DNA of 40,000 bases from positions 17,980 through 57,979 of the forward strand of contig NZ_QSFA01000011.1 in NCBI RefSeq assembly GCF_003467125.1, read 5' to 3'. A program made the translations under genes and the position numbers. Origin of the DNA: Megasphaera sp. AM44-1BH. GTDB lineage: Bacteria; Bacillota; Negativicutes; Veillonellales; Megasphaeraceae. Below are positions 2,874-30,739 of the stretch, in pieces (the stretch's first letter is position 1; every line of letters begins with the position of its first letter). A model generated the notes under the pieces. It searched no databases and had not been told where the DNA came from. It worked only from the letters and a program-made list of their open reading frames with translations.

Positions 2874-4265
2874 ATGGATTTAGAGACAGCAAAAAAGGTA
2901 ATCAAACGATACATGGCAGGGCATGGAGAGTTCCAGGCACATGCGTGGACCGCAGAACGGTATTATCGTGTGCAGAATGATATCTTATTCCCTCCGTCAA
3001 AAAAAGAAAAGGAAGAAAAAGAAAATCCGCTCCGCCATGCAGATAACCGTCTGCCACACAGCTTCTATAAGCTACTGGTCAATCAGAAAGTAGCGTATAT
3101 GTTTACGATACCGCCTACATTCGATGTAAAGAACGATGACCAGAACCAGCTGATTACGCAGTCATTGGGGGATTATTATGGAAAACGTTGTAAGGATTTG
3201 GCCGTCAATGCATCCAACGCAGGGATAGCATGGGTACATTACTGGATGGACAGCGAAAACGGTTTCACCTGGGGCGTCGTCCCCTCGGGAGAAGTGATTC
3301 CGGTCTGGTCTCCTAAACTGGATCATCAGCTTTTGGCTGTGCTCAGAGTATATCGCGATTTTGATGACAACGGGGATGTATACGACGTTTATGAATACTG
3401 GAATGATACAGAGTGCCAGGCATTCCGTAAGCGGGCCAGTGACGATATTGCTACAGGTTTGATGCCATGGCCATGTTTTACGGAATTTTATGATGCCGGT
3501 ATATCGTCTGCAGCCAACCAGTTTATTCATCAGTTAGGAGACGTCCCTTTTATCCCGTTCTGCAATAATAATCTGACAAGCAGTGATCTGGACGACGTGA
3601 AGCCACTGATTGATGCATATGACAAAACCTATAGCGGATTCATGAATGACCTGGAAGATGTGCAGGAGGTTATTTTCGTCCTTACCAACTATGGCAGCGA
3701 AGACCTGGCGCCTTTCCTGAAGAACCTGAAATATTACAAGGCAATCAATATTGAGAACAATGGCAATGGTGATGCTTCCGGTGTTTCCACGCTGACTATC
3801 GAAATACCTGTCGAGGCGCGGGATAAAATGCTGGAACTGACCCGGAAATCTATTTTCGATATGGGACAGGGAATAGATCCACAGCAGCAGGGACTGGATA
3901 AGACGTCCGGAGAAGCGATGAAATTCCTGTATGCTCTGTTGGAACTCAAAGCGGGGATGATGGAAACGGAATTCCGGTTGGGATTCAACAAGCTGATACG
4001 GGCTATTTTACGTGTCCATGGACAGCAGTGCCAGAACATCATACAGACCTGGACCCGTACCAGTATCCGAAATGACGCAGAACTGGTTGATATGTGTAGT
4101 AAATCCAATGGTATTATCAGCCGTAAAACCATTCTCAAGAATCATCCTTTTGTCGAAAACGTAGATGATGAAGAAAAAGAGCTGGATGAGGAAGAAAAGA
4201 ATCAAGCTGATAAAGACGATATCTATGGCGATTTGGACGGCAAGGGAGGTGATGGCGATGTATAA
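2874..4265 (+). CDS. Portal protein (SPP1 gp6-like)
   Basis: 463 aa, immediately after terL, with an acidic C-terminal tail. The overall pattern matches SPP1-type portals. Confidence 0.85.
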   Translation: MDLETAKKVIKRYMAGHGEFQAHAWTAERYYRVQNDILFPPSKKEKEEKENPLRHADNRLPHSFYKLLVNQKVAYMFTIPPTFDVKNDDQNQLITQSLGDYYGKRCKDLAVNASNAGIAWVHYWMDSENGFTWGVVPSGEVIPVWSPKLDHQLLAVLRVYRDFDDNGDVYDVYEYWNDTECQAFRKRASDDIATGLMPWPCFTEFYDAGISSAANQFIHQLGDVPFIPFCNNNLTSSDLDDVKPLIDAYDKTYSGFMNDLEDVQEVIFVLTNYGSEDLAPFLKNLKYYKAINIENNGNGDASGVSTLTIEIPVEARDKMLELTRKSIFDMGQGIDPQQQGLDKTSGEAMKFLYALLELKAGMMETEFRLGFNKLIRAILRVHGQQCQNIIQTWTRTSIRNDAELVDMCSKSNGIISRKTILKNHPFVENVDDEEKELDEEEKNQADKDDIYGDLDGKGGDGDV

Positions 4266-4425
4266 ATGGCTCAAACGATATGCAGAGCAGTTCAGCGAAG
4301 ATTTCCCGTTTAAATCTGTGATGGATAAGACGGAATATGAAATCTGCCGGATCATTCAGGAATGCTGTGAAAGAAATACAAAGTATGGGGCATCCGGGAC
4401 TGGCTCCACAGGAACGACTACGTAA
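4258..4425 (+). CDS. Hypothetical small protein (55 aa)
   Basis: The ATG overlaps the portal stop (ATGTATAA) and AAGGGAGGTGA lies upstream. I chose the internal start of track ORF 4165-4425. Confidence 0.4.
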   Translation: MYKWLKRYAEQFSEDFPFKSVMDKTEYEICRIIQECCERNTKYGASGTGSTGTTT

Positions 4426-4488
4426 ATAGGCTGGTATTACTTTGGCGCGGGTCGGTAACCGCGGTAAAAACCGGAAAGGAGATATAAA

Positions 4489-5121
4489 ATGACGATTGAA
4501 GAATTAATCCAGAAATTGGGGATTGCTGATGATAAAAGAGAAGAAGCTTCCAAAACTCTTCATGATTATCTGGATGGCAATTATGTAACAAAATCTCGTT
4601 TCAATGAGGTCAACGAGGAAAAGAAGACCCTGAAGACAACAGTTGCAGAACGAGACAAGCAACTGGAAACCCTGAAGAATAGCAAAGGCGATACAGAAGC
4701 CTTGAAAGCGCAAATCAAACAGCTTCAGACGGAAAATAATCAGGCAAAAGAAAAATATGAAGACCAGATGAAGAATCTGAAACTGACTACGGCCATTCAA
4801 CTGGCTATAGGTGATAGTGCGCAGGATGTCGGGATTGTTTCCGGATTATTTGACAGGGATAAGCTCATCCTTGGTGAAGATGGAAAAGTCACTGGCCTTG
4901 ATGAACAGCTTAAGGCACTCAAGGAAAGTAAACCATTTTTGTTTAAAGCAGCACCTGGTAATCCGCCGAAATACAGCCCTAATGGTGGCGGCGGAAATAA
5001 TTTGAAGAATCCCTTTGCTAAAGAGACATTCAATATGACAGAACAGGGCAAGCTGTTGCGTGAAAATCCAGAACAGGCCAAAGCCTTTGCAGCGGCCGTT
5101 GGAGTCACACTCAATGTATAG
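4489..5121 (+). CDS. Scaffolding protein (Phage_GP20-like)
   Basis: The N-terminus MTIEELIQKLGI..., the ..NYVTKSRFNEVNEEKKTLK.. motif and the long coiled coil are typical GP20 scaffold features. It precedes the capsid gene. Confidence 0.8.
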   Translation: MTIEELIQKLGIADDKREEASKTLHDYLDGNYVTKSRFNEVNEEKKTLKTTVAERDKQLETLKNSKGDTEALKAQIKQLQTENNQAKEKYEDQMKNLKLTTAIQLAIGDSAQDVGIVSGLFDRDKLILGEDGKVTGLDEQLKALKESKPFLFKAAPGNPPKYSPNGGGGNNLKNPFAKETFNMTEQGKLLRENPEQAKAFAAAVGVTLNV

Positions 5122-5134
5122 GAGGTAATGAATC

Positions 5135-6103
5135 ATGGCAGGAACAACTTTGACAGACGTCATTGTACCGGAACTCTTTAATCCGTATGTCATCCAGCGG
5201 ACAATGGAAAAATCGGCATTTTTCAGTAGCGGTATCATTACACGGAATGCAGCTTTCGATGCATTAGCCAGTGAAGCGGCCCGTACACATAATATGCCTT
5301 TCTTTGAAGATCTTTCTGGTGATGCCCAGAATATCGTAGAAGGAAAGTCAATCGAATTCCAGAAAATCACGTCTAATAAAGACGTATCGACAACTATCAT
5401 GCGTCAGCAGAAATGGAGTGCTACCTCTCTTTCGGCGGCACTGGCAGGTAGTGACCCGATGCGTGCCATCGGAGACCTGGTTGCTGATTACTGGGCCCGT
5501 CAGTATCAGAAAGAACTGATTAATATTTTGACTGGCGTCTTTGGAGCCGATACGATGGCGGACCATGTGCTGGATATTTCTAAAAAGACAGGCAATGCCG
5601 CTAATATCAGTGCGTCTGCCGTCATTGATACTCTGCAGCTTCTGGGTGACGCTCAGGATCAGCTGACAGCGGTTGTTATGCATTCCGCAACCAAAGCATA
5701 CCTTAAAAAACAGAATCTCATTACGACGGAACGGGATAGCACTTCCGTGGAATTCGATACGTATCAGGGACGCCGCGTCATTGTAGACGATGGATGCCCG
5801 GCCGCTGATGGTGTTTATACGACGTACTTCTTCGGATCGGGAGCAGTAGCTTATGGTGAAGGGAACCCGGTAGGTTTCGTGCAGACAGAAACGAAACGCG
5901 ACCCGGACCTTGGCGCCGGTATCAACATGCTTTACAACCGTCGCTGCTTCATCATGCACCCCCGTGGAATCGCATGGCAGAATGCTGTACGTGCCAACGT
6001 AGAATCTCCATCCAGAGAAGAACTGGCAACGGCAACGAACTGGAAACGCGTGTATGAACCGAAAGCCATCCGTATCGTAGCATTGAAACATAAAGTAGGC
6101 TGA
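5135..6103 (+). CDS. Major capsid protein
   Basis: 322 aa directly after the scaffold gene with a strong RBS (TAGGAGGT). The composition is typical of HK97-fold coat proteins. The family was not pinned down. Confidence 0.75.
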   Translation: MAGTTLTDVIVPELFNPYVIQRTMEKSAFFSSGIITRNAAFDALASEAARTHNMPFFEDLSGDAQNIVEGKSIEFQKITSNKDVSTTIMRQQKWSATSLSAALAGSDPMRAIGDLVADYWARQYQKELINILTGVFGADTMADHVLDISKKTGNAANISASAVIDTLQLLGDAQDQLTAVVMHSATKAYLKKQNLITTERDSTSVEFDTYQGRRVIVDDGCPAADGVYTTYFFGSGAVAYGEGNPVGFVQTETKRDPDLGAGINMLYNRRCFIMHPRGIAWQNAVRANVESPSREELATATNWKRVYEPKAIRIVALKHKVG

Positions 6104-6112
6104 TAAGGTCAG

Positions 6113-7549
6113 GTGATGGATGTGGACAGCGAAGAGTATTGGGCACAGAGAGCCATAGAGCGGGAAAAAGAATGGCACAAGAAATGCCAGGAAACCATTG
6201 AAAAGGAACTGGCCCGGTACTATCTTGCATCGCTGGGCCATATCCAGACCGATATAGCGGCACTGTATGGCCGGTTTGCCAAAGATAATGCACTGTCAGT
6301 CGAAGAAGCGCGCAGGCTGATTACGGGAAGTGAATACCGGCAGTGGCGTATGACGATTGAGGAATATATCAGGCAGATAAAGGAAAACGGGGACAAAGGT
6401 CTTGAACGGGAACTGAATGTCCTGGCCATGCGCAGCCGTATCAGCCGGCTGGATAAGCTGTACAGTGAAACCTTGATGGAACTGGATGCGTTAGGACATA
6501 AGGTTTCTGAGACTATGACGGATTTCCTCACAGATGCATACAAAGACAATTATTATCATGGGCTGTTTGATATTGGGAAGGAAATCGGATTGCCGGCCTC
6601 CTTTGCTAAAGTCAACCGTGATGATCTGACGCAGGTGCTCCGGAATCGATGGAGCGGGATGAATTACAGCCAGCGAATCTGGAAAAATCAGCGGCTGCTG
6701 GTACGAACACTAAAGTCTGAGATGATGACAGCCGTTCATCGAGGGGAAAGCATAGATGCTATCTCTAAGAGGGTATCCCAGCGGGTGGATGTCGGAATCA
6801 GTAATGCACGACGTCTGGTCCGGACAGAGCTGAATTACGTTGAAAATCAGAGTGCCATGGACGGTATCAAAGAAGCAGGGATGAAGTATTACCGCTTTTC
6901 TGCGACACTGGACCGCCGGACGTCAGCGACCTGCCGGGGACACGATGGCCATGTTTATCCCATTGGCGAATATCAGCCAGGCAGTACGGCCCCACCACTT
7001 CACCCGAACTGCCGTTCCACAATCGCCGGCAGCCTGTACGGGCCGGATAAAAAGAAGACCGGGACACGCATTGCCAGGAATGACAAGGGCAAGACGTATT
7101 ATGTGCCAGCTGACATGACGTATGAAGAATGGTATAATAAACATATCGAATCAACTATTATACCAACTGGCAATGCAAACTGGAAAACTAATGAACAAGG
7201 ATATGTTATTGTCACGAAGCAAATTCCCAAGATTATTAAACATTACCGGACTGCCACACATGCAGAACCTAATTCTGTAGTTATGCATTATGGAAAACCC
7301 GGACCACATGAGCAAATGGACTATGATTTTTATGATGAGAATGGGTATTTGGCAATGCAGATTCATTGTGGAAATCATCTTATGCCAAGAAAACATAAAT
7401 TCGGTGAGTTTGGTGAACATGCAGCACATTGGGAATGGACGCAAAAAGAGGGGAAGTGGAAAGGGCACCCATTACCAAATACTGAATTAACAGAGAAGGA
7501 AAGGAGGCTGGTACATGATGGTATTGAGTTTAAACGAACTCAGAGATGA
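6113..7549 (+). CDS. Head morphogenesis / minor capsid protein (MuF, SPP1 gp7 family) with an extra unassigned 133-aa C-terminal domain
   Basis: MuF hallmarks are RRLVRTELNYVENQS and PPLHPNCRST. aa 346-478 (nt 7148-7546) are His/Trp-rich, low-GC and unrecognised. Confidence 0.85.
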   Translation: MMDVDSEEYWAQRAIEREKEWHKKCQETIEKELARYYLASLGHIQTDIAALYGRFAKDNALSVEEARRLITGSEYRQWRMTIEEYIRQIKENGDKGLERELNVLAMRSRISRLDKLYSETLMELDALGHKVSETMTDFLTDAYKDNYYHGLFDIGKEIGLPASFAKVNRDDLTQVLRNRWSGMNYSQRIWKNQRLLVRTLKSEMMTAVHRGESIDAISKRVSQRVDVGISNARRLVRTELNYVENQSAMDGIKEAGMKYYRFSATLDRRTSATCRGHDGHVYPIGEYQPGSTAPPLHPNCRSTIAGSLYGPDKKKTGTRIARNDKGKTYYVPADMTYEEWYNKHIESTIIPTGNANWKTNEQGYVIVTKQIPKIIKHYRTATHAEPNSVVMHYGKPGPHEQMDYDFYDENGYLAMQIHCGNHLMPRKHKFGEFGEHAAHWEWTQKEGKWKGHPLPNTELTEKERRLVHDGIEFKRTQR

Positions 7550-7766
7550 AATGGAAAATTGGACCGCTTATGAAAATTCTTTTGTTTATAAGGGCGTTGA
7601 ATATGGACTACTCCATAATGCAAAAGATGGCAGTTATTATTTTGGACTGTGCAATACTCTGGATGATCATGGCCAGACTTTTCCCGATTTTGACTCTGCA
7701 GTAAATGCTTTGCTTGTAGATGGCCATTCTATTGCGGAGTTAATGCCGCAACTCAATTGGACTTAA
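7515..7766 (+). CDS. Hypothetical 83-aa protein, candidate immunity/partner of the MuF C-terminal domain
   Basis: AAGGAGG at 7501-7507 lies 7 nt before the ATG. The ORF overlaps the MuF ORF by 35 nt, has the same low GC, and is followed by a terminator. Confidence 0.6.
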   Translation: MMVLSLNELRDEMENWTAYENSFVYKGVEYGLLHNAKDGSYYFGLCNTLDDHGQTFPDFDSAVNALLVDGHSIAELMPQLNWT

Positions 7767-7782
7767 GCCCAGTTGAATACTT

Positions 7783-7808
7783 AGCACTCACGATGTGGGT
7801 GCTTTTTT
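7783..7808 (+). terminator. Intrinsic terminator after the MuF cassette
   Basis: AGCACTCAC-GAT-GTGGGTGCT forms a 9-bp stem with one G-U pair and is followed by TTTTTT. Confidence 0.7.
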
Positions 7809-7832
7809 CATGCCCAAATGGAGGTGGCAGGT

Positions 7833-8204
7833 ATGCAGTGTGTAACGGCAGATGAAGCGGTAACGCGCATTATTGCCAATGTGCAAAGTATCCGTGGTGA
7901 GCCGGCAGAGGATGCATCTCTTACGATGTATGCAAATAAATTTGTCGGTTTTGTCCTGGATTATTGCAACCGGGAAGATTTCCCTAAAACGCTGATCTAT
8001 ACAGCAACGGATTATATATCCAAATGGCTGGAAGACAAAGCGAATGGCGGGCGTCAGGGTGCATTGAAGAGCCTGGAGCAGAATGATACAAAATTCCAAT
8101 TTGCCGTATCAGATATGACGCAATCGGGAAGCCAGACCGATGCAGATCTGCAATCTTTTACAGCCTGTCTTGCACCGTATCGAAAAGTCAGGTGGCCCGT
8201 ATGA
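7833..8204 (+). CDS. Head-tail connector protein (gp6/gp15-like)
   Basis: Position after the head genes and size ~123 aa. I prefer ATG 7833 (GGAGG 8 nt upstream) over the track start 7818. Confidence 0.55.
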   Translation: MQCVTADEAVTRIIANVQSIRGEPAEDASLTMYANKFVGFVLDYCNREDFPKTLIYTATDYISKWLEDKANGGRQGALKSLEQNDTKFQFAVSDMTQSGSQTDADLQSFTACLAPYRKVRWPV

Positions 8205-8569
8205 CGATGCCATGGAACCGATGTAAGAATCTGCTCATGAAGTACATGTATAAAGACAGCGTCACCGTGTACCGGCAGCAGCCAGTAAAAGACGACGAAA
8301 GTGCCGATGATTATACGACGCAAGCCATCTATCAGGATATTCCGTGCCACCTGACACAATATGGAAAGGAACTGCAGAGCGGACAGAATCCGCGGGAATT
8401 CTTCACGAAGACGGACCTGCGCATCTGCCTGGATCCAGAATACGACATTTTGCCGAACGATGTCCTAGTCATCGTGCATGTCGGCCAAACCTTTACGCTT
8501 AATGCCGCGAAGGCTTTCAAGTATCCGGACCATCAGGAAATCAGCGTCCGCAGAGAGGATGAGGCGTAA
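8201..8569 (+). CDS. Head closure / head-tail adaptor protein
   Basis: ATGA overlap with the upstream stop. Size and position are typical of SPP1 gp16-like adaptors. The track start at 8192 is a GTG. Confidence 0.5.
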   Translation: MTMPWNRCKNLLMKYMYKDSVTVYRQQPVKDDESADDYTTQAIYQDIPCHLTQYGKELQSGQNPREFFTKTDLRICLDPEYDILPNDVLVIVHVGQTFTLNAAKAFKYPDHQEISVRREDEA

Positions 8570-8946
8570 TGGGAATGCATTTTGGTGGCTTCGACGCCTT
8601 CGATGAGCGATTAGCCAAAATCGAGGAACAGGGAGCCAGAAAGATGAATCAGTTCGTCGCCCAGGAAGCAGAAGTAATCCGAGGGAAAGTCCAGAACAAT
8701 ACTCCTGTAAGAAAGGTTAACGGCGGCCGACTGAAAGGCGGCTGGAAACGGTCACGGGCCGTGCAGGGTAAAGCTGTGGTCTATAATAACGTTGAATATG
8801 CTGCCCATGTCGAGTATGGGCACCGGACGCGTGGTGGCAAAGGCTTCGTGAAGGGAAGTAAGATGCTCCATCGCGGGATGCTGCAGGCGGAAAAGACGTT
8901 CCGGGATGATGCCGATACTATCATAAAGGCGGTGCTTGATGAATGA
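8569..8946 (+). CDS. HK97 gp10-family tail-completion protein
   Basis: The motif NNVEYAAHVEYGHRT is characteristic of the family. TAATG coupling with the upstream gene. Confidence 0.8.
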   Translation: MGMHFGGFDAFDERLAKIEEQGARKMNQFVAQEAEVIRGKVQNNTPVRKVNGGRLKGGWKRSRAVQGKAVVYNNVEYAAHVEYGHRTRGGKGFVKGSKMLHRGMLQAEKTFRDDADTIIKAVLDE

Positions 8947-9410
8947 TTACACTGCGTGAAATCAAAGCGGCCATCGTAAACGTACTGAAAACAAAATACC
9001 CGGAATGCAGGGTGCACTTCGATAATGTAGAAAAATCGGATGCGCCTTATTTTTATGTCGAACTGATGCCGACAGCGACAACAGTCGATGATGTATATAG
9101 TGACCGGCTGGTACAGGTGGATATTACCTACATCCACCCGAAAGACGCCATGGGCCGGGTTAACCGCACAGCTGTTTATGATGTAGCAGATACTCTTGAC
9201 AGGACAATCCGGCCGGTGCTGGCCATTATGGACCGGCACATCACTATTTTGGATGCAGAGATGACTGTCGTGGATGACATCCTGCATTATATTTTTAATC
9301 TTGATTTCCGTGACGCCTGGACCGATGAAGAAGCCGGCCGTGTCCAGTATGAACTGATGCAGTCGATGCAGTTGCAGGTGAACGGGACTGATCTGACAGA
9401 GGAGGAATAG
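8943..9410 (+). CDS. Tail terminator / tail completion protein (XkdJ position)
   Basis: Synteny only: it lies between the gp10-like gene and the sheath gene. ATGA overlap with the upstream gene. Confidence 0.45.
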   Translation: MITLREIKAAIVNVLKTKYPECRVHFDNVEKSDAPYFYVELMPTATTVDDVYSDRLVQVDITYIHPKDAMGRVNRTAVYDVADTLDRTIRPVLAIMDRHITILDAEMTVVDDILHYIFNLDFRDAWTDEEAGRVQYELMQSMQLQVNGTDLTEEE

Positions 9411-9413
9411 ACT

Positions 9414-10547
9414 ATGCCAGCACAGGAACAGGAATTATTCGGTCTGCCGCAGGTACTGATTAATTTCCGTACGAAAGGCACGACAGCAATCAAACGGAGT
9501 GCCATGGGGATCGTTGCGATGATTCTCCACAATGAATCGAAAGATGAAATCCATAACTATACGATCCGGGATGTATCGGATATCCCGGAAACGGGTCTTA
9601 CCGATGAAAACGTAGACCTTATAAAGAAATGTCTGCTCGGGACGCCGCTCCGGGTCCTGGTATATACACTGCCCCTTTCCACTGTAGAAGGAGCGACTAA
9701 GACACAGGCCAACGTCCTCAAGATGCTGGCCAATATCAAATGGAACTGGCTCTGTGCCCCGACATCCACGACGCAGGAACAGAATGACCTGGCATCTTGG
9801 ATTAAGACGCAGCGCACGACGAAACGGAAAACTTTCAAGGCCGTATTGTCTGAACAGGCCGCCGACCATGAAGGTGTTGTCAACTTCTGCACGAACGATA
9901 TCAAGGTGCAGACTGACACCGACAGCTCTGGCAATCCTGTCTATACAACGTATACGTCGTTACAGTATACAGCCCGAATTGCTGGTATTTTGGCAGGACT
10001 GTCTCTGGACCGCAGCGCTACGTACTTTAAGCTGACGGAAGTCGAAAGCGTAGAGGTCTACGAAGATATCGATACACTGATTGATAAAGGCGAACTGCTC
10101 CTGATTGATGAACAGGACGGCGATGGCGTCAAGATTGCCCGCGCCTGCAATTCCCTTACGACCTTCACCACGGACAAAGGTGAAGAATTCCGTAAGATTA
10201 AAATCATTGAAGGCATGGACATGATTACCGATGATATCCGGGATACGTTCAAGAAATATTACGTCGGCAAGGTCATCAACGACTACAACCATAAGATGCT
10301 GTTCATTTCGGCCATCCTGGTCTATTTCTCAGAAATCAAAGGGAACGTACTGGATGCCGATGCAGATAATACAGTTGACATCAACGAACAGTATCAGAGC
10401 AATTATGCCAAGCTTCACGGCGATGATCCGACAACGATGTCGGTCATGGAAATCCGCCAGTACAATACCGGTGATACGGTTGCTCTGGTCGGCAATATCC
10501 GTCTCGTAGATGCTATGGAAAATCTGACGATTGATTTTACCCTGTAA
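9414..10547 (+). CDS. Contractile tail sheath protein (XkdK-like)
   Basis: 377 aa. The N-terminus ..GLPQVLINFRTKGTTAIKRSAMGIVAMIL.. is typical of XkdK-type sheaths, and the tube gene follows. Confidence 0.85.
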   Translation: MPAQEQELFGLPQVLINFRTKGTTAIKRSAMGIVAMILHNESKDEIHNYTIRDVSDIPETGLTDENVDLIKKCLLGTPLRVLVYTLPLSTVEGATKTQANVLKMLANIKWNWLCAPTSTTQEQNDLASWIKTQRTTKRKTFKAVLSEQAADHEGVVNFCTNDIKVQTDTDSSGNPVYTTYTSLQYTARIAGILAGLSLDRSATYFKLTEVESVEVYEDIDTLIDKGELLLIDEQDGDGVKIARACNSLTTFTTDKGEEFRKIKIIEGMDMITDDIRDTFKKYYVGKVINDYNHKMLFISAILVYFSEIKGNVLDADADNTVDINEQYQSNYAKLHGDDPTTMSVMEIRQYNTGDTVALVGNIRLVDAMENLTIDFTL

Positions 10548-25337: not shown

Positions 25338-25341
25338 CTGT

Positions 25342-25415
25342 GGTGCGCCTAGAAGGATTCGAACCTTCGCACCCGGTTCCGGAGACCGGTGCTCTATCCC
25401 CTGAGCTATAGGCGC
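25342..25415 (-). tRNA. tRNA-Arg(CCG)-like gene with a non-canonical 6-nt anticodon loop
   Basis: Acceptor GCGCCTA/TAGGCGC, D arm GCTC/GAGC, T arm GAAGG-TTCGAAT-CCTTC and an encoded CCA are all perfect. The anticodon arm is CCGGT-CTCCGA-ACCGG. Confidence 0.7.
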
Positions 25416-25437
25416 ATGTCATATAACGTACTTTCAT

Positions 25438-25466
25438 ATAATATCACGAATTAAAAATTATTTCAA
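25438..25466 (-). promoter_or_regulatory. Sigma70-type promoter for the minus-strand tRNA
   Basis: On the minus strand TTGAAA (25466-25461), a 17-nt spacer and TATTAT (25443-25438), ~22 nt upstream of the mature 5' end. Confidence 0.5.
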
Positions 25467-25519
25467 GCCCGGACTGGCAGGTTCTTGTCATATTTTTACT
25501 GGCAACGTGTATCTATATA

Positions 25520-25528
25520 TGGTATTAT
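25520..25528 (+). promoter_or_regulatory. Candidate extended -10 promoter for nifS-mnmA
   Basis: TGgTATTAT at 25520-25528. The -35 (TGGCAA) is weak. Confidence 0.3.
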
Positions 25529-25558
25529 ATACAATAGGCTAAAAATGGAGTTGACGCG

Positions 25559-26707
25559 ATGATGGAACGTATCTATCTGGATCATGCAGCGGCAACTCCT
25601 CTGGATCAGAGGGTGCTGACTGCCATGATGCCGTATCTGACAAGTCAATATGGAAATCCGTCCAGCCTGCATTATTTTGGGCAGCAGGCCCGTGCGGCTG
25701 TACAGCTGGCACGACGACAGCTTGCTCATTGCCTGGGCGTTGCAGCCGGTGATGTGGTATTTACCAGCGGCGGCACGGAAGCAGATAATCTGGCCATACA
25801 AGGTTACCTGCGGGCCAATCATCCCCATGGTGGTCACTTGATTACGTCTGCTGTGGAGCATCAGGCTGTGCTGAATACGTTCAGGGCATTGGAGGCAGAA
25901 GGATATTCCCTGACCGTGCTTCCCGTTGATTCTGATGGCCGCGTCTGTCCGGAAACGTTACGACAGGCAATCCGTCCCGATACGGTACTCATTTCCATCA
26001 TGTATGCCAATAATGAGACCGGCACGGTACAGCCTGTACAGAAACTAGGGGCTATAGCCAGGGAACATGATATCGTGTTTCACGTCGATGCCGTCCAGGC
26101 CTTTGGCTATCTGCCGGTACATCCTATAGAGGACGGCATTGATCTGCTGACTGTGTGCAGCCATAAAATATATGGACCAAAAGGAATGGGCGCTTTGTAT
26201 ATCCGCAAGGGAATACAGCTGGCTTCAGAGGCCCATGGGGGACCGCAGGAGCACCGGCTGCGTGCGGGAACCGAAAATGTAGCCGGCATCGTCGGATTTG
26301 GTATGGCTGCAGCCCTGCTTGAAGCGGAACGGCCGGAACGAATCGAAAAAGTCCGTATGTTAAAAAATCTGGTGTATCACGAGATGATTGAAGGTAACGG
26401 GATATTGCATCTCAATGGCACGTTATCCGGATCTTTGCCCAACATCATTGATTTCAGTGTAGACGGTATGGAAAGTCCGGTCCTTTTGATTGCCCTGGAC
26501 CGGCAGGGAATTGCCGTGTCGGCCGGCTCGGCCTGCGAAGCCGGTGCTGTTGAGCCTTCCCATGTGCTGATGGCTATGGGAACTGATGATAAATGGCTCC
26601 GCAGTAGTATCCGCATGTCCTTTGGTCCGGAAAATACAGTCGAAGAGGTCAGGAAGACTATACAAGCCATCCGGGATATTACCAGACCTCTTAGAAAAGG
26701 AGTATAG
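25559..26707 (+). CDS. nifS: Cysteine desulfurase (NifS/IscS-type class V aminotransferase)
   Basis: Motifs IYLDHAAATP, TSGGTEADNLA, SHKIYGPKGMGALY and RAGTENV. Paired with mnmA, like the YrvO-MnmA arrangement. Confidence 0.9.
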   Translation: MMERIYLDHAAATPLDQRVLTAMMPYLTSQYGNPSSLHYFGQQARAAVQLARRQLAHCLGVAAGDVVFTSGGTEADNLAIQGYLRANHPHGGHLITSAVEHQAVLNTFRALEAEGYSLTVLPVDSDGRVCPETLRQAIRPDTVLISIMYANNETGTVQPVQKLGAIAREHDIVFHVDAVQAFGYLPVHPIEDGIDLLTVCSHKIYGPKGMGALYIRKGIQLASEAHGGPQEHRLRAGTENVAGIVGFGMAAALLEAERPERIEKVRMLKNLVYHEMIEGNGILHLNGTLSGSLPNIIDFSVDGMESPVLLIALDRQGIAVSAGSACEAGAVEPSHVLMAMGTDDKWLRSSIRMSFGPENTVEEVRKTIQAIRDITRPLRKGV

Positions 26708-26710
26708 ATT

Positions 26711-27796
26711 ATGACGAAATGTGTCGCCGTGGCTATGAGCGGCGGTGTCGATAGTTCTGTAACGGCAGCGCTCCTGAAGGAACAGGGCTACGATGTCATT
26801 GGCATTACGCTGCGTTTATGGGAAGAAGATCCATCCTGCCCGGCAGTCGAAAATGTTCATTCCTGCTGTTCTCTGTCTGCCGTTGATGATGCCAAGGCAG
26901 TGGCTTCTGTCATTGGCATTCCCCATTATACCCTGGATTATAGAGAATTATTCCATAACGATGTCATCGATTATTTTGTCCAGTCCTATGTAAAAGGACA
27001 GACCCCCAATCCATGCATCGCCTGCAATAAATGTATTAAATTCGGCCTGCTCTGGCAGCAGGCGCAGCAATTTGGCGCCCAATACCTGGCAACGGGCCAT
27101 TATGCCCGCATTGTGTATAATGAAGCGCGTGGCATTTATGAACTGCTGCGGGGAACGGACCGGCGCAAAGATCAGTCATACGTCCTGTATCAGTTGACAC
27201 AGGATTTGCTGCCACATATTGTATTTCCCATGGCAGAACTGGAAAAAGTACAGACGCGGGAACTGGCAAAACAATTCGGGCTTCCTGTTTTCAATAAGCC
27301 GGAAAGCCAGGATATATGCTTTATTCCCGATAATGATTATAAAGGTTTTTTAAAGAAGCGGGTCCCGCAATGCTTTAAACCGGGGAATTTCGTTGATGTA
27401 CACGGCCATGTTGTCGGACGTCATCAGGGCATTCCCTGTTATACTATCGGCCAGCGCCGTGGCCTGCATCTCGGCGGTCCCGGAGGTCCGTATTATGTCG
27501 TCGCACTCGATGTGAAACGCAACCAGGTCATCGTCGGTTCAGAAACGGATTTGTTCCGTACAGAAGTCCGGGCCCGGGACCTCTCGTGGGTGGAAGGCCG
27601 GCCGCAGGGGACGTTTGCAGCATTGGGAAAGATACGTTATGCTGCCAAAGAATCTCCTTGTACGGTGTATCCCGGCAAGGATACGATGCGCGTCGTATTT
27701 GACACGCCGCAGCGGGCTGTGACGGCCGGACAGGCACTGGTATTGTATGACCGGGAAACGGGAGAACGGGTTCTCGGCGGTGGTGTCATTATTTAA
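26711..27796 (+). CDS. mnmA: tRNA 2-thiouridine(34) synthase MnmA
   Basis: PP-loop [24 protein letters not shown], and the length of 361 aa. Confidence 0.9.
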
Positions 27797-27809
27797 TGCT
27801 AGAGGAGTA

Positions 27810-29618
27810 ATGAACGTGGCAACTAAATATATCCGTAATTTTTCAATTATTGCACACATTGACCATGGCAAATCGACGCTGGCAGACCGGCTTCTGGAAA
27901 TGACCGGTACCGTTTCCAAAAGAGAAATGGAAGACCAGCTCCTGGATACGATGGATCTGGAACGGGAACGGGGCATAACGATCAAAGCCCAGTCGGCCCG
28001 CCTGATTTATGATGCCAAAGACGGTCATCAGTATACGCTGAATCTGATTGATACGCCGGGGCATGTTGACTTTAATTATGAAGTATCCCGCAGCCTGGCT
28101 GCCTGTGACGGGGCACTCCTGATCGTCGATGCGACCCAGGGCGTAGAAGCACAGACGCTGGCCAACGTATACCTGGCTCTGGAACATGACCTGGAAATCA
28201 TCCCGATCATCAATAAAATCGACCTTCCCAGTGCAGACCCCGAACGGGTGCGCAAAGAGATAGAAGATGTCATCGGCCTCGATGCCAGTGATGCTATTGA
28301 AGTCAGTGCCAAAACAGGGCTTGGTGTCGATAAGGTGCTCGAAGCCATCGTACAGCGGATTCCGGCACCAGAAGATGCACCGGATAAGCCGCTGCGGGCC
28401 CTGATTTTCGATTCACATTTTGATTCGTACAAAGGAGCCATTGCCAATATCCGCATCATGGAAGGTAGTCTCAAAACAGGGGACCGGATCCGCATGATGT
28501 CCAGCGGGATGGAATTTGAAGTGACAGAAACAGGCGTCTTTATTCCCCAGATGCACCCCGTCGCGTCCCTTGAATGCGGCAGTGTCGGCTATCTGGCGGC
28601 GAGCATGAAAAATGTCCGCGATTGCCGCGTCGGTGATACGGTCACGCTGGCGGACCGTCCGGCAGCAGAACCACTGCCGGGATACCGCAAGGCGACGCCT
28701 ATGGTATATTGCGGGCTTTACCCTGTAGAAACCAATGATTATGATAATCTGCGGGATGCCCTGGAAAAACTGCATCTCAATGATGCGGCCCTGTTATTTG
28801 AACCGGAAACATCGACGGCTCTGGGATTCGGGTTCCGCTGCGGCTTCCTGGGACTTCTCCATATGGACGTCGTCAAGGAACGGCTGGAACGGGAGTATGG
28901 TCTGTCTCTGATTACGACGGCTCCGTCGGTTATTTATCATGTATATTGCACAGATGGCACGATGGTCGCCGTCGATAATCCATCTCTTATGCCGGATATG
29001 ACGAAAATTGATCATATCGAAGAACCCTTTGTCAAGACGACCATCATCATCCCGAAAGATATGGTAGGGACGGTCATGGAAATTTCCCAGAACCGGCGCG
29101 GTCAGTATCTGACCATGGATTATCTCGATGAAACCCGGGTTTCCGTCGTGTATAATCTGCCGTTGTGTGAAATACTGTATGATTATTTTGATACGTTGAA
29201 ATCTTCGACGCGGGGATATGCTTCTCTGGATTATGAGCTCAATGGGTATCAAGCATCACCTATGGTGAAGATGGATATCCTGATCAACGGGGAAGTGGTC
29301 GATGCGCTGAGCGTCATCGTACATAAAGAATTTGCAGCCCGCCGTGGCCGGGCTCTGGTAGAAAAACTCCGCAGCCTCATCCCGCGGCAGCTTTTCCAGA
29401 TTCCTATCCAGGCTGCTATCGGCAATAAAATCATTGCCCGGGAAAATGTAGCGGCTTTGCGCAAAGACGTACTGGCCAAATGTTATGGCGGTGATATTTC
29501 CCGTAAGCGCAAACTTCTGGAAAAACAGAAGGAAGGGAAGAAACGCATGAAGCAGGTTGGCAGTGTTGAAATCCCTCAGGAAGCCTTTATGGCCGTATTA
29601 CAGGTAGATGAAAAATAA
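27810..29618 (+). CDS. lepA: Translation elongation factor 4 (LepA)
   Basis: Motifs [30 protein letters not shown] and NKIDL, and the LepA C-terminus. I prefer ATG 27810 (AGAGGAG RBS) over the track start 27747. Confidence 0.95.
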
Positions 29619-30739
29619 TGACAGGTCTGTATATTCATATTCCGTTCTGCCGTCATAAGTGCCGATATTGCGATTTTCCCTCTTATGGCGGAGTAGAATC
29701 GTATATACCGGCTTATACGGAGGCCCTCTGCCGGGAAATCAGCACTTCTCCCCGGGAGGGCCTCGCTGTCGATACGATTTATTTTGGCGGCGGCACACCG
29801 TCGCTATTGACCATTCCTCAGATTGCATCCGTTCTGCAGGCGGTGACACAGCATTTTGTCGTCGATTCCCATGCGGAGATCACACTGGAAGGCAATCCGG
29901 ACAGTCTGGACGGAGACTATCTGAAACAACTGCGCAGGCTGGGGATCAACCGGCTGAGCATGGGTATACAGAGTTTCCAGCCGCAGCTTCTGCACTCTCT
30001 GGGACGGATTCATTCACGCCGTCAGGCTGTAGAGGCAGTGGAATATGCAGTGCGGGCTGGTTTTGACAATCTGTCTGCCGATCTGATGTATGGCCTGCCC
30101 GGACAGACTCTGCAGATGGTATCCGATGATTTGGAGCAGCTTTTTCAGCTTCCCCTGTGTCATACCTCCGTATACAGCCTGATTCTGGAACAGGGCACCT
30201 GCCTGCATCATGATGTGACAACCGGTGCAGTATCGTTGCCGCCGGATGAACAGGTAGATGCCATGGCGTCTTTAGTCCATCAGGCTTTTGATGCGCATGG
30301 TTTTGACCATTATGAGATTTCTAGCTATGCCCGTCCGGGACGGCGGTCCCGTCATAATGTCAAGTATTGGACTTATGTACCCTACCTGGGATTCGGCGTT
30401 TCGGCTCATTCATTTGATGGCAGTGTACGGACAGCGCACATTGCCAATATTCCTCAGTATATCCGTGACGCCGGCAGACAATCTGTACTGGCGGAATCCG
30501 TCATTATTGATACAAAACGGGCACAGGAAGATTATTGTTTTCTCGCATTGCGTATGCGTGATGGCATCCTATATGATGACTTTGCCCGCCGTTTCGGCGT
30601 CTCGGTGGAATCAGAGTTTGGCAAAGTGGTGGAACGGCTGATGGCACAAGGGCTGCTGGAACAGACAGAGCGTGGCTGTCGTCTCACCAGCCTGGGACTG
30701 GCCTATGGAAATTATGTATTCAGCCAGTTTATCCGCTGA
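29618..30739 (+). CDS. hemW: Radical SAM heme chaperone HemW (HemN-like)
   Basis: LYIHIPFCRHKCRYCDF is the CxxxCxxC radical-SAM motif. The lepA-hemW pair is conserved. TAATG coupling. Confidence 0.85.
   Translation: MTGLYIHIPFCRHKCRYCDFPSYGGVESYIPAYTEALCREISTSPREGLAVDTIYFGGGTPSLLTIPQIASVLQAVTQHFVVDSHAEITLEGNPDSLDGDYLKQLRRLGINRLSMGIQSFQPQLLHSLGRIHSRRQAVEAVEYAVRAGFDNLSADLMYGLPGQTLQMVSDDLEQLFQLPLCHTSVYSLILEQGTCLHHDVTTGAVSLPPDEQVDAMASLVHQAFDAHGFDHYEISSYARPGRRSRHNVKYWTYVPYLGFGVSAHSFDGSVRTAHIANIPQYIRDAGRQSVLAESVIIDTKRAQEDYCFLALRMRDGILYDDFARRFGVSVESEFGKVVERLMAQGLLEQTERGCRLTSLGLAYGNYVFSQFIR

Follow-up and report, generated by a model that had tools for sequence, protein, structure and literature searches.

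A recently swapped, low-GC end domain of a prophage MuF protein and its small acidic partner form a putative, widespread and unannotated toxin/immunity-like pair

The window, that is, the whole stretch of 40,000 nucleotides of Megasphaera sp. AM44-1BH DNA that we analysed, carries a prophage whose MuF protein ends in a low-GC domain that was swapped in recently; as far as can be judged from sequence, this tail domain and the small protein encoded after it constitute a widespread, unannotated toxin/immunity-like pair. The region from ~7113/7196 to ~7780/7797 is probably a horizontally exchanged cargo of the MuF polymorphic-toxin/polyvalent-protein kind, composed of an effector domain and a translationally linked, small acidic neutraliser. 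The choice between a toxin with its immunity protein and an anti-defence effector with its chaperone is not settled, and is narrowed toward toxin/immunity because of partner genes that occur without the tail, remnant loci in which the tail is broken but the partner intact, and a promoter-like element embedded ahead of the partner gene.

Prophages of gut and respiratory Firmicutes often carry effectors fused to MuF, and most of the C-terminal extensions, two-thirds by the count of Jamet et al., have no assigned domain (PMC5576092). An ORF of <150 aa follows 89% of predicted MuF toxin genes, and 75% of MuF toxin domains are also found on non-phage secretion scaffolds (PMC5576092). Experiments on prophages of pneumococci and Pasteurellaceae have shown their MuF C-terminal domains to be toxic, and immunity proteins encoded next to them to neutralise them (PMC12226406). 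One such extension family is now defined here, with its tail, its cognate partner family and a confident structural model that has no solved relative. The features of the locus, in window positions, are the following.

6113-7549, + strand: ORF of the MuF protein, 478 aa (ORF call)
6113-7147, + strand: MuF (SPP1 gp7-type) minor head protein core, aa 1-345, the conserved delivery scaffold (Pfam, TIGR and PHROG matches)
7110-7138, + strand: near-consensus sigma-70-like promoter, CTGACA-17 nt-TGgTATAAT, inside the ADMTYEEWYN codons and reading into the cassette (11/12, extended -10)
7113-7196, no strand: left recombination boundary zone of the cassette (end of DNA homology in close relatives)
7148-7549, + strand: 133-aa C-terminal tail, unannotated family, predicted effector/toxin domain (profile search, AlphaFold2, residue table)
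7168-7177, + strand: direct repeat TGGCAATGCA, copy 1, 10 nt (alignment, BLAST segments)
7209-7236, + strand: weaker promoter-like site, TTGTCA-16 nt-GATTAT, 9/12, 306 nt 5' of the partner ATG (consensus scan)
7350-7359, + strand: direct repeat TGGCAATGCA, copy 2 (alignment, BLAST segments)
7501-7507, + strand: Shine-Dalgarno sequence AAGGAGG of the partner gene, 7 nt 5' of its ATG (sequence)
7515-7766, + strand: 83-aa acidic partner, pI 4.2, charge -10, predicted cognate immunity/neutralising protein (partner-family profile)
7783-7808, + strand: intrinsic terminator-like hairpin and T-run, right boundary of the variable cassette (scan, folding)

The scaffold is a MuF protein, matching Phage_Mu_F (PF04233; aa 200-304, E 1.2e-18 in Pfam), which places its N-terminal part in the MuF superfamily, and TIGR01641 (aa 204-306, E 9.5e-25 in NCBIfam), while the whole protein matches phrog_115 (E 1e-114, the profile match extending as far as residue 392) and phrog_2841 (E 1e-109), both annotated 'minor head protein' in PHROG. 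The hallmarks listed in the first-pass annotation (RRLVRTELNYVENQS, PPLHPNCRST and TYEEWYNKHI) are all present in the translation, and the arrangement that it described, a 478-aa MuF ORF overlapping the 83-aa ORF by 35 nt, with the ribosome-binding site at the position listed above, is the one found. The muf gene lies in the head module of the prophage, which has host genes on either side; it comes after the scaffold and major head genes and is flanked by the major head protein gene and by head-tail adaptor genes. MuF toxin genes are typically directly 3' of the portal gene, whereas here muf follows the major head protein gene and the portal gene is not directly upstream. A megablast search with window positions 5000-9500 returned no near-identical phage record.

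Recombination exchanges the cassette, as a discrete unit, between MuF backbones that are nearly identical. In 45 viral loci with core identities of 29-96%, the proteins part ways at residue ~340-345; the extensions beyond this point measure 10-401 aa, and every one of them is accompanied by a small ORF of its own. This is the pattern that had been predicted for an alignment of homologues, ~345 conserved aa followed by C-termini and downstream ORFs that are unrelated. Some of the alternative extensions are known toxin/effector domains: ADPrib_exo_Tox, the PBECR2 nuclease and DUF4258 score above the cut-off and CdiA_C below threshold, and HExxH types also occur. Conservation of the tail in all MuF orthologues, which had been named as the observation that would count against a cassette, is not what is seen, unrelated extensions being attached even to cores that are up to 96% identical. 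On the left, DNA homology with close relatives ends at 7113 (L092, L094), 7132-7136 (L093, L095), 7188 (L216) or 7196 (L091) and restarts on the right at 7775-7798, essentially where the edges had been drawn by eye. Three relatives with 96% identical cores illustrate the exchange: L091 lacks 7197-7688, that is, most of the tail together with about two-thirds of the partner gene, and has lost the cassette without losing the phage backbone, and L092 and L094 carry a different allele of both the tail and the partner family.

Base composition marks the cassette as foreign to the head operon. The five hand counts of G+C made in the first-pass annotation (39, 32, 21, 20 and 31 per 60) are exact on recount, and the step that it placed at ~7.14 kb persists when computed properly: 7148-7808 has 39.3% GC vs 49.5 +/- 3.7% over all 661-nt windows, of which 0.2% are equally low, and the lowest-GC windows of this size in the entire 40 kb begin at 7041-7141. 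GC3 falls from 56% in the MuF core to 30% in the tail and 32.5% in the 83-aa ORF; the next gene has 44.5%.

The tail is His-rich as claimed (11 His in 133 aa vs 9 in the 345-aa core). Neither it nor the 83-aa protein could initially be placed in any family; the lack of annotation stands, but the two proteins are not orphans, and both belong to sizeable families. At E<=1e-3, the tail family comprises 164 cluster representatives (clusters at 50% identity), and the profile of the window clade reaches remote members at E 1e-8 to 1e-33. The family is present on 261 viral contigs, among which are pneumococcal and S. mitis phages. The tail is always the extreme C-terminal domain of its carrier. The window protein is MuF plus this one domain. 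The family as a whole sits on three phage scaffolds, and its carriers are Phage_Mu_F, Phage_min_cap2, DUF5662-DUF7211 and multi-effector proteins, among them an 812-aa relative (Phage_min_cap2, an HExxH domain and the tail) and a 1924-aa protein; the DUF5662 carriers, which have no MuF domain, lie outside a head context, next to NTP-pyrophosphohydrolase-like and RtcB genes. No Pfam, PHROG, NCBIfam or PADLOC entry matches the tail, nor do PDB sequences by single-sequence or profile search, nor the species-representative genomes; none of the 64 longest family members has a T5, T6 or T7 secretion or Rhs scaffold. The lack of a known toxin family or fold, and of non-phage secretion scaffolds among the 64 largest members, speaks against a typical MuF toxin and suits a phage-specific role no less than a toxin. 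The one hint of a toxin domain is a weak match of streptococcal tails to the end of phrog_18811 'toxin' (E 3e-4 and 7e-3), and we found no paper mentioning DUF5662, DUF7211, phrog_3711 or phrog_15041.

The AlphaFold2 model of the tail is confident (pLDDT 94.7, pTM 0.88) and matches no PDB fold; this covers ordinary head-structural domains, the prediction of which had been named as a possible objection to the cassette. It shows no similarity to solved BECR RNases, HNH/His-Me, PD-(D/E)xK, ART, deaminase, zincin or M23 structures. The resemblances to M23, HNH, metallo-beta-lactamase and colicin E3 that H-x-H-D and His-rich motifs call to mind found no backing in fold or profile searches. Among 56 tail-partner pairs, none departs from H77, E90 or H91 (tail numbering), and Y62 and E118 have one exception each; the family thereby offers clear candidates for catalytic residues. 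The window subclade has changed R59 to Y/F, H93 to A and D94 to H/V, positions that nearly all other members keep, so the window copy may have altered activity or none. Y62, H73, H77, H83, E90, H91 and E118 are retained in the subclade, which has also acquired a conserved Cys74.

The link between the tail and partner families is close to obligatory. Of 82 loci besides the window, 81 have an ORF of 71-86 aa from one family after the tail, nearly always with an ATGA overlap. The window partner is a divergent member of this family: among 371 window segments, a profile built from 49 partners at other loci matched the 83-aa ORF and no other, over its whole length (16.2 bits, conditional E 3.5e-7). 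It also matches the partner of IPP38 over its full length (BLASTP E 0.01), and Pfam, PHROG, NCBIfam and PADLOC give nothing beyond a weak match to phrog_3711 (E 8e-5). The partner family is uniformly acidic (pI 4.05-5.17, median 4.4) and has no recognisable DNA-binding domain or family; one of five AlphaFold2 models of the window partner reached pLDDT 84.8, with no PDB match. The CG[VI]DP motif is absent from the window partner, having been lost in the window subclade. Partners evolve much faster than tails, the window partner scoring 16 bits with its family profile vs the E-values given above for the tail profile.

A partner can persist alone, and an intact tail almost never does. Seven of 67 metagenomic partner genes have no upstream tail, four of these lying behind a different MuF effector (L251, L254, L257, L282) and one behind other immunity-like ORFs, compared with 1 of 81 tails without an intact partner (Fisher p = 0.023 for two collections that were sampled differently). 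The same asymmetry appears in chromosomal remnants, which are pieces of a prophage head operon adjoining a serine-recombinase prophage attachment region. In L001-L008, the two TGGCAATGCA copies are the endpoints of a 182-bp frameshifting deletion that inactivates the tail, the BLAST segments (6709-7177 and 7350-8183) overlapping by the repeat. Remnants L002 and L216 share the same outer junctions (window 6709 and 8183) and differ solely in the replacement of ~7189-7797. A broken tail with an intact partner is found in two of the three remnant types, which represent few independent events, and the sequence of P0003 looks frameshifted when compared with the window. Cassette exchange at defined breakpoints, and the survival of partner genes after their effector is gone, are thus documented with unusual directness.

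A sigma-70-like promoter appears to be kept inside the tail-coding sequence, upstream of the partner, by synonymous-site constraint; this is supported by comparison across the family and is new here, the literature that we found containing no description of an embedded promoter ahead of the partner in MuF cassettes. Promoter-likeness is taken as a match to the consensus. In 26 of 26 non-redundant loci the embedded site scores at least 10/12, and in 20 of 26 at least 11/12, vs 0/26 and 1/26 in two controls; in most family members the strong site lies 296-299 nt 5' of the partner ATG. The hexamers are retained in two reading phases and over differing peptides, with varying spacers. Synonymous recoding gave a median p of 0.0185, with p < 0.05 in 19 of 26 loci, and a combined p-value for the 26 loci overstates the evidence because the loci are related. 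For the window site at 7110-7138, recoding its peptide synonymously gives an equal or better score in only 2.4% of cases, and remnant L216 keeps the same element. Other cassette types, which are AT-rich too, reach at least 10/12 in 14 of 24 cases, a weaker version of the trend.

The terminator claimed at the end of the unit was recovered by scan as a hairpin at 7783-7803 with a T-run (-14.3 kcal/mol, z = -2.0 vs shuffles). The 3' half of its stem, the T-run and the ribosome-binding site of the next gene belong to the conserved backbone, outside the variable part, and allele B of L216 has its own stem with the same GGTGCTTTTTTCAT end. In a simple scan, neither IPP38 nor L016 showed a terminator behind the partner gene, so that the promoter-gene-terminator picture is not general and a terminator as the usual right edge of the cassette is unsupported by these scans.

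In the reading that we prefer, the tail may be an enzyme, a metal-dependent one being our guess from its conserved His, Glu and Tyr, that would be taken into the virion with MuF, set free in the infected cell and harm cells lacking the partner, and the partner would bind and block it in the producing cell. The embedded promoter could allow lysogens and chromosomal remnants to make the partner while the late operon is silent, which might confer immunity to the same effector arriving with related phages; if this is true, a promoter kept by synonymous-site selection within the effector gene would explain how a lysogen is protected with its late operon off. A bolder version, which we regard as rather speculative, has the tail as a new-fold metal-dependent enzyme injected to establish infection, with the partner, made from the hidden promoter by both lysogens and conserved chromosomal remnants, neutralising it and so serving superinfection exclusion or defence against phages. 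The exchange of cassettes at the MuF junction would then reflect a phage-phage and phage-host arms race over one injected protein, and synonymous-site selection would maintain a promoter inside the toxin gene family-wide.

Part of this evidence could be read differently. Were the acidic partner itself the payload (a DNA mimic or another anti-defence protein, for example), and the MuF tail a non-catalytic domain docking it into the capsid and then bringing it to the host, strict linkage and the same asymmetry of presence and absence would also be expected, because an adaptor without its cargo is useless. DNA-mimic anti-restriction proteins are acidic, as the partners uniformly are, and the restriction of the tail family to phage proteins (64 largest members) suits such an arrangement. 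It is nonetheless unlikely, given that the orphan partners L251, L254, L257 and L282 sit in a late operon with no docking domain and could not be packaged, that the conserved His/Glu/Tyr set of the tail resembles an active or metal site more than a docking surface, that a promoter expressing the partner apart from MuF has no obvious use for a packaged cargo, and that the partner evolves far faster than the tail. We give an equally small chance to a non-toxic anti-defence or host-takeover enzyme, whereby the injected tail would eliminate a defence signal or alter a host factor and the partner would be a folding or packaging chaperone. A phage-restricted family on capsid-internal scaffolds is consistent with the early-injected effectors proposed for polyvalent proteins (PMC5512222), and the conserved E-H-x-H-D and His-rich loop could form the site of a metal-dependent hydrolase or phosphodiesterase; however, a harmless enzyme needs no strictly co-inherited, translationally coupled partner (81/82 loci), enzyme-less partners and broken-enzyme/intact-partner remnants would be left unexplained, and the cassette matches no PADLOC or other known anti-defence family. 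The RtcB RNA ligase gene that follows the cassette in one lineage could be cited in favour of such an enzyme, but it is confined to that near-identical lineage, and we also discarded it as a general clue to RNA cleavage.

Two further readings concern the window copy and the head operon. The changes at R59, H93 and D94 and the missing CG[VI]DP motif raise the question of whether the window tail is catalytically dead and kept as a partner-binding or structural appendage, the cassette being a fossil toxin/immunity pair; broken versions of the window allele do circulate (the 182-bp deletion in L001-L008, the frameshift-like P0003), and L091 dropped the cassette while keeping its phage backbone. 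This is quite improbable, since the ORF is intact, the AlphaFold2 model is confident and the other conserved residues are retained with Cys74 gained, and since the QIHCG[ND]H...G[EA]H core is whole across subclade members at 72-74% (P0002) and 44-52% identity (P0011-P0014, L217), which argues for purifying selection on a functional variant. That tail and 83-aa protein serve capsid structure or morphogenesis (the tail binding the portal or DNA ends, for instance, with the small protein as its assembly factor) and have no role in conflict is the least probable of all and would be surprising, even though the genes lie within the head-morphogenesis block and the 'minor head protein' match to phrog_115 extends to residue 392: 96%-identical backbones lack the cassette (L091) or bear unrelated domains in its place, the tail also occurs on non-MuF DUF5662 proteins in a non-head context, and the GC and GC3 step is foreign to the head operon.

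Compared with known systems, the preferred effector/neutraliser pair is closest to the MuF polymorphic toxins (PMC5576092; Apk2, PMC12226406), with which it shares the N-terminal MuF, a C-terminal extension that varies between close homologues, a small ORF immediately 3', and residence in prophages of Firmicutes-type hosts and of the human gut. The MuF domain, polymorphic extension and small (<150 aa) downstream ORF used by Jamet et al. (2017) are all present, whereas a recognised or shared toxin domain is not: the window tail matches no catalogued toxin domain, and among the 64 longest family members it was found on no other polymorphic-toxin scaffold. Toxicity and cognate immunity have been shown experimentally for the Apk2 MuF toxins (PMC12226406) and are predicted for the present pair. 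Polyvalent proteins (PMC5512222) likewise place enzymatic effectors on virion-packaged MuF, predicted to be injected with the DNA, and some tail relatives would carry two effectors; that framework stresses anti-defence and requires no immunity partner, whereas the partner is nearly obligatory here, and the tail is none of the polyvalent-protein domains now in Pfam (PBECR1-5, MuF_C and others). T4 Alt and IPI* and P1 DarA/DarB are head-packaged, delivered with the DNA and act at the first moment of infection (PMC5512222). Unlike the window protein, these are stand-alone proteins that are not known to have a cognate inhibitor gene, and there is no homology.

We rejected assignment to the type II toxin-antitoxin modules, in which a free-standing two-gene operon usually has the antitoxin first, with a DNA-binding autoregulatory domain; here the first position is taken by the toxin-like domain, as part of a virion protein, and the partner has no recognisable DNA-binding domain. 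In nuclease colicin operons (E3, E9 type), a promoter inside the toxin gene ensures that immunity protein is made when the toxin operon is repressed. The present locus is alike in having a small acidic protein directly 3' of a putative cytotoxic domain and a predicted promoter ~300 nt 5' of the partner, in the tail-coding sequence; it differs in its vehicle, a phage capsid instead of secretion and receptor-mediated uptake, in that its promoter is a predicted one, and in that colicin domains and the tail share no sequence or fold similarity. In CDI and Rhs loci, truncated toxin fragments and intact immunity genes persist in chromosomes and swap cassettes by homologous recombination. The remnants L001-L008, L216 and L218-L220, together with the orphan partners that persist without a tail, are comparable to these modules, with the difference that the remnants here derive from a prophage head operon, not from arrays 3' of a secretion-system toxin.

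The low-GC segment at the end of the MuF gene is a MuF-type cargo cassette, an already known kind, composed of the C-terminal 133 aa of the MuF protein (the tail, aa 346–478, with its own residue numbering) and the small acidic protein encoded right after it (the partner); the effector and partner families found here are unannotated and widespread. Its new aspects, both directly testable, are an embedded promoter-like element and chromosomal remnants with swapped cassettes. The genes lie in the order large terminase, portal, scaffold, major head protein, MuF, 83-aa ORF, two head-tail adaptors, neck protein and tail sheath, with the two genes concerned at

6113–7549, MuF protein, 478 aa (core, aa 1–345)
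7515–7766, partner ORF, 83 aa

The core was matched by Pfam PF04233 (aa 200–304, E 1.2e-18), TIGR01641 and minor-head-protein PHROGs, and the MuF motifs quoted in the first-pass annotation were found in the translation. Its account of the junction also held, with a 35-nt overlap of the two ORFs, AAGGAGG 7 nt before the ATG of the 83-aa ORF and, in our scan, a terminator-like hairpin at 7783–7803 followed by a T-run (folding energy −14.3 kcal/mol, z = −2.0). All five hand counts of GC were correct on recount, and the reported drop is real (39.3% at 7148–7808 vs 49.5 ± 3.7% for all same-length windows); the lowest-GC windows of the entire 40 kb fall in this segment, and GC3 runs from 56% in the core to 30% in the tail, 32.5% in the 83-aa ORF and 44.5% in the next gene. 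At 2874–7549 the order is portal, scaffold, major head protein and MuF; published descriptions mostly place the MuF gene directly after the portal gene (PMC5576092).

In 45 viral loci whose MuF cores are 29–96% identical to that of the window, the proteins split at residue ~340–345 into extensions of 10–401 aa, every one with its own small ORF behind. Alternative extensions included an ADP-ribosyltransferase exotoxin domain (E 3e-18), the phage BECR nuclease PBECR2 (E 1e-10) and DUF4258, with HExxH motifs in several and a below-threshold CdiA_C match in one. L092 and L094, viral loci with a 96% identical core, carry another allele of both the tail and partner families, and a deletion of 7197–7688 in L091 (core 96%) takes away the greater part of the tail along with roughly two-thirds of the partner gene. 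DNA homology to relatives stops at 7113–7196 and picks up again at 7775–7798, at the terminator; the cassette is exchanged as one unit. A 98%-identical relative (P0003) reads ...HLMPKKNINSVSLVNMQHIGNGRKKRG, which is the window tail in a shifted frame, the shift falling at the A-run AGAAAACATAAA (window ~7386–7392); it is either a naturally broken tail or a homopolymer assembly error.

A short chromosomal remnant of the prophage head region, corresponding to window 6709–8183 plus an HTH_59 gene, occurs in many assemblies of the same species and adjoins the host genes that flank the window prophage from 25341 on. Its two versions have both outer junctions in common and differ by replacement of window ~7189–7797. 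Allele A (L001–L008) is 97–98% identical to the window and has an intact partner, its tail being destroyed by a 182-bp frameshifting deletion between TGGCAATGCA repeats (7168–7177 and 7350–7359); in allele B (L216) the tail is intact and different, and the partner has 71 aa. The third type of remnant (L218–L220) lies in a different chromosomal setting and carries an allele B tail that ends early after GEHKHL, together with an intact partner.

Window 25341–30472 is host chromosome (cysteine desulfurase, MnmA-like, LepA, HemN-like), 99% identical to remnant loci L001–L008 and L216. The HTH_59 gene is present in the remnants and not in the window, and in L008 it is followed by a large serine recombinase and prophage early genes. 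Since the host flank is common to both and L008 carries the recombinase and early genes, the remnant island seems to adjoin the attachment site of the window's prophage family. Among species-representative genomes, the host cysteine desulfurase (25559–26704) was matched best by an uncultured Megasphaera sp. (L136, UQHB01000063.1), at only 64% identity; the host is probably a Megasphaera-related Negativicute.

Word-indexed searches with the tail returned just a handful of near relatives; its profile, in an exhaustive search of 1.84 billion cluster representatives, matched 164 of them at E ≤ 1e-3, and the tail is a member of a family, not a singleton. The match was at the very C-terminus in all 164, ending 0–9 residues from the terminus in 152/154. 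Among the 64 longest tail proteins, 25 had an N-terminal Phage_Mu_F and 25 a Phage_min_cap2 domain, and none had an Rhs scaffold or one of type V, VI or VII secretion; other architectures had DUF5662 and then a short DUF7211 motif (GVKGQKWGVRNGPPYP), or an additional HExxH domain preceding the tail, and one protein reached 1924 aa. The tail consensus was PNAV..R..YD..G...KQIH...HG.PK.HPYG..GEHAHDY.W...RELT..ER.EN.DIL, with H77, E90 and H91 invariant over 56 unique tail-partner pairs and one deviating pair each for Y62 and E118.

The DUF5662-DUF7211 scaffold, the third, formed ORFs of ~290–345 aa in ten loci (L031, L034, L037, L043, L051–L055, L079), with HIHRNPHHWQYW and ICDWWAFSW conserved in DUF5662 (PF18907) ahead of the 16-residue DUF7211 motif and the tail; we found no literature on either domain. 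One near-identical phage lineage alone (L051–L055, e.g. L051:3055–4257) has, directly behind this gene and its partner, an RNA ligase gene of the RtcB type (phrog_1075, E 2e-131); upstream there is a weak NTP-pyrophosphohydrolase-like match.

Annotated phages of pneumococcus and S. mitis (IPP38, Spn1, Javan316 and others) have the tail at the end of a "head morphogenesis" or "minor capsid" protein, whose stop codon is overlapped by a 75-aa gene. Altogether 261 loci were detected; in 81 of the 82 considered here (80 on viral contigs, two from these annotated phages) a 73–86-aa ORF stands right behind the tail, almost always overlapping it by ATGA, and these ORFs are one family. Among the remaining loci, L079 has an apparently truncated copy, and the L047 ORF is cut by the contig end. 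A profile of 49 distinct partners, built without the window protein, matched the 83-aa ORF alone among 371 stop-to-stop segments, aligning end to end (16.2 bits, conditional E 3.5e-7). Partners are acidic throughout (median pI 4.4; window partner pI 4.18, charge −10); tails are mostly near-neutral to basic (median pI 7.4). Of five AF2 models for the partner, one reached pLDDT 84.8; as with the tail, no solved structural relative was found.

The window belongs with P0001/P0002, P0011–P0014 and L217 to a subclade with R59 replaced by Y/F, H93 by A/T and, in the window and L217, D94 lost; Cys74 is gained, and the main-clade CG[VI]DP motif is missing from the partner. Because the QIHCG[ND]H...G[EA]H core is kept throughout, we regard the subclade tail as a probable functional variant; an inactive window copy is conceivable. 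Elsewhere in the family, tails carrying A, S or E in place of H83 (loop HGHK[AV]E...; L083, L088, L069/L074/L078/L086) have partners with CGVDP altered to CNIDP, GNVDP or GHVDP, so that the His-rich tail loop and the partner motif possibly co-vary.

A metagenome scan with a partner profile gave 68 loci, 60 with a tail immediately before the partner (full-length in every case where the contig extends far enough), one too near a contig edge to judge and seven orphans. In four orphans the preceding genes are a MuF carrying an HExxH extension and a small ORF of another kind; one follows a 117-aa ORF resembling the small ORFs of other cassettes, and two have no upstream ORF. Tails without an intact partner numbered 1/81 vs the seven orphan partners (Fisher p = 0.023, the two samples not being equivalent), an imbalance in the sense that a protective partner and a dangerous tail would produce. 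The same asymmetry is predicted if the partner is a packaged payload and the tail its docking domain. A toxin with its immunity protein is the reading best supported by these sequence comparisons, and we hold it with moderate confidence. The 117-aa ORF (L237:189–542) looks like two small proteins fused, its halves resembling the ORFs that follow MuF in two other cassettes (L133-type, MDIKECDIVQLKDG...; L130-type, Cys-rich, ...CLKCQYHPE), which suggests a putative array of immunity-like genes.

The best promoter-like site in our scan lies at the left edge of the cassette:

7110–7138, CTGACA-17-TATAAT with TG before the −10

The unrelated members IPP38 and L016 have 11/12 sites where the tail-coding region begins. 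Across 26 loci with partners <80% identical to each other, a coding-strand site of ≥10/12 was present in 26/26 (≥11/12 in 20; 12/12 in L089), mostly 296–299 nt upstream of the partner ATG; controls gave 0/26 in the preceding 430 nt and 1/26 on the opposite strand. The hexamers sit on codons of L-[KT]-N-A-x-G-x-x-I-I (TTG AAA or ACA ... xxT ATA ATx), and are found in a second reading phase and on different peptides too (in the window, the non-homologous ADMTYEEWYN), with spacers varying freely from locus to locus. When each peptide was recoded synonymously with the codon usage of its own locus, the observed score was attained in a median 1.85% of trials (p < 0.05 in 19/26; window p = 0.024); because the loci are related, a combined p would exaggerate the evidence. 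Among Leu codons in these genes the share of TTG is only 13%, and among Ile codons that of ATA is 26%. The partner would be transcribed from this predicted embedded promoter independently of the late operon, much as colicin immunity genes are transcribed apart from their toxin operon. In the window this promoter would be self-contained together with the partner gene and the terminator, and the remnants keep the unit.

In other cassette types (L092–L135), coding-strand sites of ≥10/12 lay between the MuF junction and the small ORF in 14/24, with 1/24 in the core and 5/24 on the minus strand, a weaker trend than in the tail family; internal promoters may be a general, weaker MuF-cassette feature or a by-product of low GC.
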